The position numbers and the translations under genes were made by a program. Shown piece by piece: positions 2,819 through 3,373 of a stretch of DNA of 5,495 bases. Position 1 is the stretch's first letter. Every line of letters begins with the position of its first letter. The notes beneath the pieces are model-generated. The model made no database searches. It was given only the letters and a program-made list of their open reading frames with translations, and was not told the origin of the DNA. The DNA is from a virus (lineage: Duplodnaviria; Heunggongvirae; Uroviricota; Caudoviricetes): IMG/VR virus record IMGVR_UViG_638341087_000011. One strand, 5' to 3'.

Positions 2819-3069
2819 GTGAATCAAAATGCCAGGTTAATGGCAACAAGATAGAACCATGCGCAGCACTGGCAAAGTCCCTTGAGCATGATGCTGAATA
2901 CACGATGCGAAAAGGTCTGCTGATATACAAAATCTGGAATGAGAGTTTAACTCGCGGTCCTGATTTTGTGATGTTGCGTTCCGGTGAATTTTCTAAATTA
3001 CCAGTTCGGGTTTCATTTTGTCCGTTCTGTGGTGAAAGTCTGAAAATGTGGGAGAACAGAAATGAATGA
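2815..3069 (+). CDS. Hypothetical small protein with possible zinc-ribbon (CxxC-type) motif
   Basis: GTG start at 2815, 4 nt after GAGGAGGAGG (2801-2810), overlapping the upstream stop. Protein contains C-x9-C near the N-terminus and CPFC near the C-terminus. Its stop overlaps the next start (ATGAATGA at 3062-3069). Confidence 0.55.
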   Translation: MSESKCQVNGNKIEPCAALAKSLEHDAEYTMRKGLLIYKIWNESLTRGPDFVMLRSGEFSKLPVRVSFCPFCGESLKMWENRNE

Positions 3070-3373
3070 AATTAAAGAAATACCAGTAGAACGTGATGAA
3101 TATGGCTGCTGGGCACATCCTGAATATGAGAAATTCTGTGACGGTCGGGAATATATTTCAACGGAAGAGTTTAACGCCTGGATGGAGGAAAATAATCTTC
3201 AATACGCCCTCTGCTTCAGAGATGAAGGATGTGCTGACCTTGATGCGTGTGATGCTGATATTTCTGCATGGGAACCGGAACGACCAGAGGGCAATGGATG
3301 GTTTATTGGTTCAATACATGACACCGAAGATGGCCCGGTTTGTGTATGGCTGAGAAATAAGGCCGAAGCATAA
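3062..3373 (+). CDS. Hypothetical highly acidic small protein (103 aa)
   Basis: ATG at 3062 is translationally coupled to the upstream ORF. By manual count the protein has about 25 Asp/Glu against about 8 Lys/Arg, plus 6 Cys. Preferred over the overlapping alternative frame 3093..3353 because of the coupling and its position as last gene of the coupled trio. Confidence 0.6.
   Translation: MNEIKEIPVERDEYGCWAHPEYEKFCDGREYISTEEFNAWMEENNLQYALCFRDEGCADLDACDADISAWEPERPEGNGWFIGSIHDTEDGPVCVWLRNKAEA

Follow-up and report, generated by a model that had tools for sequence, protein, structure and literature searches.

A family of strongly acidic proteins, phrog_1372, shared by phages, plasmids and genomic islands of Proteobacteria: a candidate acidic decoy in a Rac-like prophage

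Ocr (gp0.3 of phage T7) and ArdA are elongated DNA mimics, and plasmid anti-defence genes are concentrated in the leading region. Ugi, T7 gp5.9, T4 Arn and AcrIIA4 are compact globular acidic inhibitors of DNA-binding proteins, with lengths of about 60-110 amino acids (aa). Here we describe a 103-aa acidic protein encoded in a 5,495-nucleotide (nt) stretch of Caudoviricetes DNA (IMG/VR record IMGVR_UViG_638341087_000011; the whole stretch is referred to below as the window), which corresponds to the immunity-proximal early-right region of a Rac-like lambdoid prophage. An earlier note, made from the letters alone, had suggested that this protein might be a DNA mimic or anti-defence factor comparable to Ocr and ArdA. 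By profile match, the protein is a member of phrog_1372, a family of unknown function whose domain, according to our homology searches, is widespread in phages, prophages, conjugative plasmids as well as integrative and conjugative elements (ICEs) or genomic islands of Proteobacteria. Judged by profile searches and a predicted structure, it falls outside Ocr, ArdA, Lar, Tad2 and all PADLOC families. We tentatively propose that it could act as a non-catalytic, stoichiometric acidic decoy that blocks a nucleic-acid-binding protein of the host or of a rival, in the service of counter-defence or takeover.

A constrained gene in a widespread acidic family

As judged from its relatives, the open reading frame (ORF) is a genuine gene, far beyond what a chance reading frame would produce. 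It starts with ATG and ends with TAA, and the same coding sequence (CDS) is annotated by RefSeq in related Escherichia coli genomes as a hypothetical protein (WP_001002672.1, 97% identical). The product is also 98% identical to "rac22" of phage Rac-SA53, which is likewise annotated as hypothetical. The ratio of nonsynonymous to synonymous substitution rates (dN/dS) against diverged copies was 0.09-0.17 once dS exceeded 0.19 (24 distinct nucleotide variants), which shows that the gene is under purifying selection. Copies with at least 80% identity can be found in 742 of 5,426 complete E. coli genomes (about 14%), with a median of two copies and a maximum of four. The search for related loci yielded solely copies that were at least 90% identical, and hence little diversity.

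The protein contains 26 acidic residues (17 Glu and 9 Asp) and eight basic residues (5 Arg and 3 Lys), so that its net charge is about -18 and its isoelectric point 4.1; there are also six Cys, five Trp and two His residues. The earlier estimate of about 25 acidic against about 8 basic residues was thus essentially correct. Residues 1-102 align with positions 55-158 of the 194-position phrog_1372 profile (E = 1.1e-54), and we observed no sequence-level difference that would set the protein apart from the annotated members of the family, which are Rac-SA53 rac22, mEp213_045, D6 orf96, PY54 ORF48 and WP_001002672.1.

Our profile search of 1.84 billion cluster representatives (E up to 1e-3) recovered 982 clusters at 50% identity. 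Homologues are present in 83 phage records, and the hosts of these phages include Escherichia, Klebsiella, Erwinia, Yersinia, Pectobacterium, Dickeya, Providencia, Serratia, Pseudomonas, Burkholderia, Vibrio, Acinetobacter, Variovorax and Nitrincola. They were unexpectedly also found in 2,024 plasmid records, 1,754 of them from conjugative plasmids and 1,494 from Klebsiella. The acidic protein itself matched no model in Pfam (E up to 0.1), NCBIfam or PADLOC (E up to 0.1), and the PADLOC matches in the window come solely from two ORFs further downstream. Searches of 39 homologues against Pfam at E up to 1 returned nothing consistent. Literature searches by identifiers, motifs and keywords for DNA mimicry and anti-defence turned up no paper on the phrog_1372 family, and the homologue on the Pseudomonas element pKLC102 is not covered in one Pseudomonas-island paper that we consulted. 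The family would merit a domain-family entry even if it should turn out to be an ordinary accessory protein.

We analyzed conservation in a set of 237 full-length homologous domains. Their net charge has a mean of -14.5 and a median of -15 over about 105 residues (5th-95th percentile, -19 to -7). Outside R11, R29 and R98, basic residues are close to zero in almost all alignment columns. This retention of charge across the set indicates that acidity is a selected property of the family. Acidic residues are at least 70% conserved at D12, E30, E36, D54, D56, D66, position 78, D87, E89 and D90; the protein in the window departs from this pattern at two of these positions, with Gly in place of D56 and Asn at position 78. 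The residues that are 91-100% conserved (R11, G15, W17, H19, P20, W70, P72, P75, G77, G79, W80, F81, I85, G91, W96 and R98) form a 16-residue signature, all of which can be found in the window protein. The best-conserved residue types are Trp, Gly, Pro, His and Arg, and they carry no enzyme-like signature.

The earlier note had also described the protein as Cys-containing, which holds for the copy in the window and does not extend to the family. Only C94 is conserved (86%); C26 reaches 39%, the other Cys residues are lineage-specific, and the family alignment contains neither a CxxC nor a CxxH motif. A small metal-binding or redox-active protein that uses these Cys and His residues could be envisaged from the six Cys and two His, from the conservation of H19 (99%), H86 (86%) and C94, and from the conserved acidic turn D87-T88-E89-D90, which lies near H86 in the sequence. 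We regard this as the least probable of the explanations considered here. Five of the six Cys residues are not conserved, and distant members have Gln or Tyr in place of H86, an observation that speaks against a catalytic or metal site. There is also no similarity to a metal-binding family or fold, and C94, opposite I85 in a predicted hairpin, looks like a core residue to judge from the predicted secondary structure. On Cys conservation, a Cys-based metal or redox site was rejected as a feature of the family.

Predicted fold and comparison with known inhibitors

An AlphaFold2 model built from a 39-sequence alignment was confident overall (pLDDT 85, pTM 0.77) and predicts a compact alpha+beta domain, the elements of which are listed in Table 1. 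Confidence is low in one loop, with pLDDT values of 64-68 over residues 51-70 and below 50 at residues 57-59; this is the acid-rich region of the alignment that varies in length, and much of the negative charge resides there. The model would be compatible with a rigid, Trp/Gly/Pro-rich alpha+beta core that presents a uniformly negative surface together with a flexible acidic loop.

A search of BFVD with the protein returned solely uncharacterised members of the same family, and the predicted fold had no match among the solved structures in the Protein Data Bank (PDB). By implication, the fold would be unlike that of any DNA mimic or anti-defence protein deposited there. The sequence and profile matches to PDB entries were discarded as Strep-tag II artefacts, since they arise from tagged constructs in which WSHPQFEK aligns with GCWAHPEYEK. 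The latter segment comprises residues 15-24 (window positions 3104-3133), and the likeness is due to chance. It falls in the most conserved N-terminal motif of the family, G-x-W-[TA]-H-P-x-[YF]-E, and could confound Strep-Tactin pull-downs of the protein.

The protein resembles Ocr and ArdA in being small, strongly acidic, encoded by a mobile element and located in an early region, and could be called an acidic decoy in that broad sense. A classical B-DNA mimic of this type would be an elongated dimer that inhibits Type I restriction enzymes, an explanation that finds its support in the high net negative charge, the small size and the early expression of the protein. We nevertheless consider it very improbable. 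Searches of Pfam, NCBIfam and PDB gave no sequence or profile similarity to either protein; the structure prediction, which the earlier note had put forward as a check, yielded the compact domain described above instead of the elongated, mostly helical fold on which the carboxylates of Ocr trace a DNA backbone; the most conserved residues are hydrophobic or structural, and part of the charge lies in a loop that is itself variable. The leading-region position associated with ArdA was likewise not observed for plasmid homologues in five elements that we inspected. We also checked for the "first gene" position that Ocr takes in T7 among Pectobacterium, Dickeya and Pseudomonas phages, where the gene is merely one of several early small ORFs. 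In its specific form, the analogy drawn with Ocr and ArdA is unsupported.

The closest analogy for a possible mode of action may be with Ugi, gp5.9, Arn and AcrIIA4, which the protein resembles in size, charge and predicted globular fold. Generic acidic decoys are a class defined by function and not by homology, and the trait of this class that we observed in the family is a conserved, strong negative charge.

The protein was also compared with two further anti-defence families. Members of phrog_1372 occupy the same kind of variable early-operon slot as Lar/RalR and lambda Ral, which serve restriction alleviation in lambdoid prophages, and some of them are fused to Lar domains or adjoin a Lar-family gene. 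The acidic protein is not homologous to Lar, however, with no match to PF14354; RalR is basic (net charge +5) and has a CPFCG zinc knuckle, whereas the protein studied here is acidic and lacks that motif. There was also no profile match to Tad2 (Thoeris anti-defence 2, PF11195), a domain that we encountered, in a Tad2-like form, as a fusion partner in a single cluster. None of the defence components in PADLOC-DB matched the protein.

Domain fusions, gene neighbourhoods and possible roles

Among the 237 domains, 150 are stand-alone, while 38 carry an N-terminal and 41 a C-terminal extension of more than 40 aa. Multidomain proteins, with the acidic domain at either end, make up about a third of the clusters sampled, and all 78 fused clusters match phrog_1372. 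The identified partners are diverse, comprising Lar_restr_allev in three clusters (two N-terminal and one C-terminal, the latter of the pKLC102 type), an Rv2179c-like 3'-5' exonuclease in two, and a Tad2-like domain (P0172, C-terminal), a DHH/DHHA1 phosphoesterase and a KTSC domain in one cluster each. About ten clusters share an unannotated domain (EGWTxEHDD...WPW..WKP..AEIERLDR), and one cluster (P0133) is a tandem duplication of the acidic domain itself. Coiled-coil extensions and NTP-pyrophosphatase-like helical domains also occur among the fusions.

The unannotated partner is a recurring helical domain of about 90 aa with the consensus ...EGWTxEHDDxHxxGELAxAAAxYA...WPW..WKP..R.LVKAGALxxAEIERLDR. 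It is carried by P0170, P0232, P0205, P0142, P0171, P0207, P0193 and P0184 and at positions 2967-3653 of locus L089, and is fused to a Lar domain in pKLC102. No Pfam family was reported for it in any fused carrier, and it may be another uncharacterised building block of the accessory set to which the acidic domain belongs.

The gene neighbourhoods are similarly varied. In lambdoid prophages, homologues occupy variable early-left slots, between N and cIII, just before xis-int or, in Rac-like prophages of Salmonella, directly after recE-recT. The slot directly after recE-recT holds ralR(lar)-rcbA in the Rac prophage of strain K-12, and no RalR homologue is present in the Salmonella recE-recT loci that bear a homologue of the acidic protein. 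Typical neighbours are recE/recT, RdgC, ParB-like helix-turn-helix (HTH) proteins, DUF550 and exonucleases. On F-type plasmids, the gene was observed after traX/finO and next to repA, beside genes for DUF2726 and a phospholipase D (PLD)-family nuclease (two plasmids), or between traW and traU (two plasmids). In pKLC102 of Pseudomonas aeruginosa, the homologue forms the N-terminus of a 248-aa protein encoded near parA, and a Lar-family restriction-alleviation gene lies directly 3' of the gene that encodes it. No leading-region gene was found among the annotated neighbours of the homologue in the five conjugative elements inspected, in which oriT was not mapped. The ORFs that flank homologues vary in family and size, and have net charges between -22 and +15. 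Most domains stand alone and their neighbours are variable, which fits an autonomous, non-enzymatic accessory domain that is expressed early and for which a rigid aromatic core and a uniformly negative exterior would be the properties under selection.

These associations would also be compatible with a different role, in which the domain is a targeting or adaptor module that recruits or regulates the DNA-processing enzymes of the element through a component of replication, recombination or repair, belonging either to the host or to the element; the stand-alone form would then be a regulator or competitor. The multidomain proteins, with exonucleases, DHH/DHHA1, NTP-pyrophosphatase-like and coiled-coil partners, are what such a role would lead us to expect, as are neighbours such as recE/recT, RdgC, ParB-like HTH proteins, DUF550 and exonucleases, and the position of the gene in the window directly after the replication genes. 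We consider this role unlikely all the same, since the 150 stand-alone domains form the larger part of the set, no partner family is dominant and the fusions may be merged accessory genes. A uniformly acidic surface would suit the blocking of a DNA-binding surface at least equally well.

We next consider the genes that adjoin the acidic protein in particular lineages. Barstar and the colicin-immunity proteins are acidic and neutralise basic nucleases, and the acidic protein could by analogy be an immunity protein or antidote against a nuclease or toxin of the same element, such as the sce7726/Beta pair in the window or DUF2726 or the PLD-family nuclease on plasmids. Klebsiella conjugative plasmids of the IncFII(K) type carry a conserved block between finO and repA that consists of genes for a PIN-domain protein, a hypothetical protein, DUF2726, the acidic protein and a PLD-family nuclease (for example, positions 8336-9946 of locus L087 from pKPCAPSS); about 1,500 plasmid records are similar. 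In these plasmids the start of the homologue and the stop codon of the basic DUF2726 protein overlap, and the phospholipase-D-family (Nuc-like) gene follows on the 3' side. In the window, the acidic protein precedes a candidate defence pair. Such a role is in our view improbable. The DUF2726 and PLD neighbours are confined to one plasmid lineage, with unrelated and often acidic neighbours elsewhere, and the family is far wider than any candidate cognate toxin. No more than 22 of 86 close loci have the sce7726/Beta cassette 3' of the gene, and the intervening 305-nt gap is able to hold an IS1 element, as it does in Rac-SA53. A functional link between the acidic protein and the cassette was rejected on these grounds, and their adjacency should not be taken to indicate one. 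The statement in the earlier note that the gene sits immediately upstream of a candidate defence cassette thus describes the window, if the gap is allowed for, and not the loci in general.

We return to the possibility that the protein is an acidic decoy, which we tentatively favour as the most economical of the mechanisms considered. It would act stoichiometrically and without catalysis: its acidic face would cover the basic surface with which a protein of the host or of a rival element binds nucleic acid, for example a protein of restriction, defence or repair or of the nucleoid, and by blocking the bound protein early it would leave the DNA of the element protected or favoured. Protein binding, electrostatic mimicry of nucleic acid and a counter-defence outcome are the parts of this scheme that we infer. 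The slot shared with ralR, together with the recurrent Lar and Tad2-like associations, tilts the interpretation towards counter-defence, although recombination and nuclease genes also abound in these surroundings. Two diverged copies can occur in one element, as in locus L111 (5001-5360 and 8957-9283) and in the Erwinia phages Stean, Pavtok and PEp14 (two places each); these genomes and the P0133 tandem would fit a diversification of binding specificity. The anti-defence suggestion is hence compatible with circumstantial observations, namely conserved acidity, early slots, Lar and Tad2-like fusions and multiple copies, and the protein stands as a candidate.

Several observations weigh against this proposal. 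The protein has, in our searches and in the predicted model, neither sequence nor fold similarity to known DNA mimics or anti-defence proteins, and acidity is common among small phage proteins that are not mimics. The features that are most conserved are hydrophobic or structural, in place of an ordered carboxylate array. The fusion partners and neighbours further comprise Rv2179c-like exonucleases, DHH/DHHA1 and NTP-pyrophosphatase-like domains, which points to an association with early DNA-metabolism and accessory genes in general and not with anti-defence specifically; the fusions may merely be mergers of neighbouring genes. On F-type plasmids, the gene lies outside the leading region, either inside the tra operon or at its distal end.

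A further-reaching version of the decoy proposal is possible, though we find it doubtful: the protein could be the founding member of a new counter-defence or host-takeover family, a compact decoy with a novel fold, directed at a single, broadly conserved DNA-binding host factor (a restriction or repair complex or a nucleoid protein, for example), which mobile elements would mix with Lar, Tad2-like and nuclease modules. If the decoy proposal is correct, phrog_1372 would constitute an unrecognised family of mobile-element inhibitors with a fold unlike any solved structure. A factor that phages, plasmids and ICEs have in common would suggest a barrier in the host which all incoming DNA has to pass, and would be relevant to how Klebsiella plasmids spread and which hosts phages can infect. 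The family is a reasonable candidate for experimental screening, and what makes it interesting is its breadth across these elements and its unmatched fold.

Genetic context in the window

Table 1. Features of the window and elements of the acidic protein.
Feature	Position	Strand	Basis or remark
P22-Cro-like ORF	514-804
YdaT/CII-like ORF	716-1213		PHROG match
Replication initiator	1279-2355
DUF977/"Ren-like exclusion protein" ORF, first of three overlapping small ORFs	2396-2818	+	PF06163 4.1e-30; phrog_142 1.1e-47
84-aa ORF, phrog_4030, function unknown; conserved C6, C16, C69, C72	2815-3069	+	Profile match
Shine-Dalgarno-like GGGAG, 7 nt 5' of ATG 3062	3050-3054	+	Sequence reading
Start/stop overlap ATGAATGA: ATG of acidic protein (3062-3064) and stop TGA of 84-aa ORF (3067-3069)	3062-3069	+	Sequence; ORF coordinates
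Acidic-protein CDS, stand-alone phrog_1372 domain, 103 aa	3062-3373	+	ORF list; profile match; alignments; AlphaFold; dN/dS
Non-coding gap, 305 nt, from last gene of early operon to sce7726/Beta cassette	3374-3678
sce7726-family ORF	3679-4257	+	NCBIfam 1.7e-56; PADLOC "cll" 2.4e-28
Beta-family ORF, similar to PD-Lambda-2_C	4217-5314	-	PF14350 2.3e-51; PADLOC PD-Lambda-2_C 6.5e-41
Acidic protein: N-terminal segment with R11-D12...G15-x-W17-x-H19-P20 motif	N-terminal		Predicted element
Acidic protein: predicted helices	Residues 20-26 and 34-43		AlphaFold
Acidic protein: predicted strand	Residues 46-52		AlphaFold
Acidic protein: variable acidic loop	Residues about 53-69		AlphaFold; alignment
Acidic protein: W70-x-P72-x-x-P75-x-G77-x-G79-W80-F81 segment	Residues 70-81
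Acidic protein: predicted beta-hairpin with S84-I85-H86-D87-T88-E89-D90-G91, C94, W96, R98	Residues 80-88/91-99		AlphaFold

The boundaries of the genes in the window are summarized in Table 1. We looked for promoter-like and terminator-like sites on the + strand from the replication genes to the acidic protein and found none; in the simplest reading, the gene therefore closes the early-right operon and shares a transcript with the replication genes. Judging from the stop/start overlaps, it is also translationally coupled to the two upstream ORFs. The DUF977 ORF ends in a TGA (2816-2818) that falls within the GTG with which the 84-aa ORF starts (2815), and the ATGAATGA overlap at the start of the acidic protein reads as a translational-coupling junction; this latter overlap is likewise annotated by RefSeq in relatives. 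Both the early-region location and the coupling to two other small ORFs, as proposed in the earlier note, are thus borne out. The GC content is about 0.50 in the replication genes, 0.42-0.44 in the 84-aa ORF and the acidic protein, and 0.32-0.41 in the cassette. The YdaT/CII-like ORF as listed, with its start at 716, shares about 90 nt with the Cro-like ORF; its PHROG match starts at residue 22, so that translation probably begins at an internal Met near position 785.

The 84-aa ORF lies immediately 5' of the acidic protein in 64 of the 86 close loci, whereas distant loci either lack it or have unrelated ORFs in its place. Its family is narrow, with 68 clusters that all come from enteric bacteria, and the genes found upstream in D6 and mEp213 bear no relation to it; it was therefore rejected as a conserved partner. 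Its four conserved Cys residues (...FCPFCGE...) suggest a small zinc-binding protein. A Lar-like identity was unsupported, as only the CPFCG knuckle aligns, and the AlphaFold model of this ORF was unusable (pLDDT 45).

The sce7726 and Beta ORFs form a convergent pair with a 41-nt overlap. Their presence in only 22 of the 86 loci suggests that they behave as a separate moron, which occurs without the other PD-Lambda-2 genes and may be regarded, from these matches, as a candidate two-gene defence module. The gap that precedes the pair matched no Rfam family, a scan for repeats found nothing, and no terminator-like site was seen on its + strand. In phage Rac-SA53, IS1 is inserted in this gap after the acidic-protein gene (L001 6462-7227), flanked by an 8-bp target duplication (AAACATTT), and the same octamer can be found intact in the window at positions 3514-3521.

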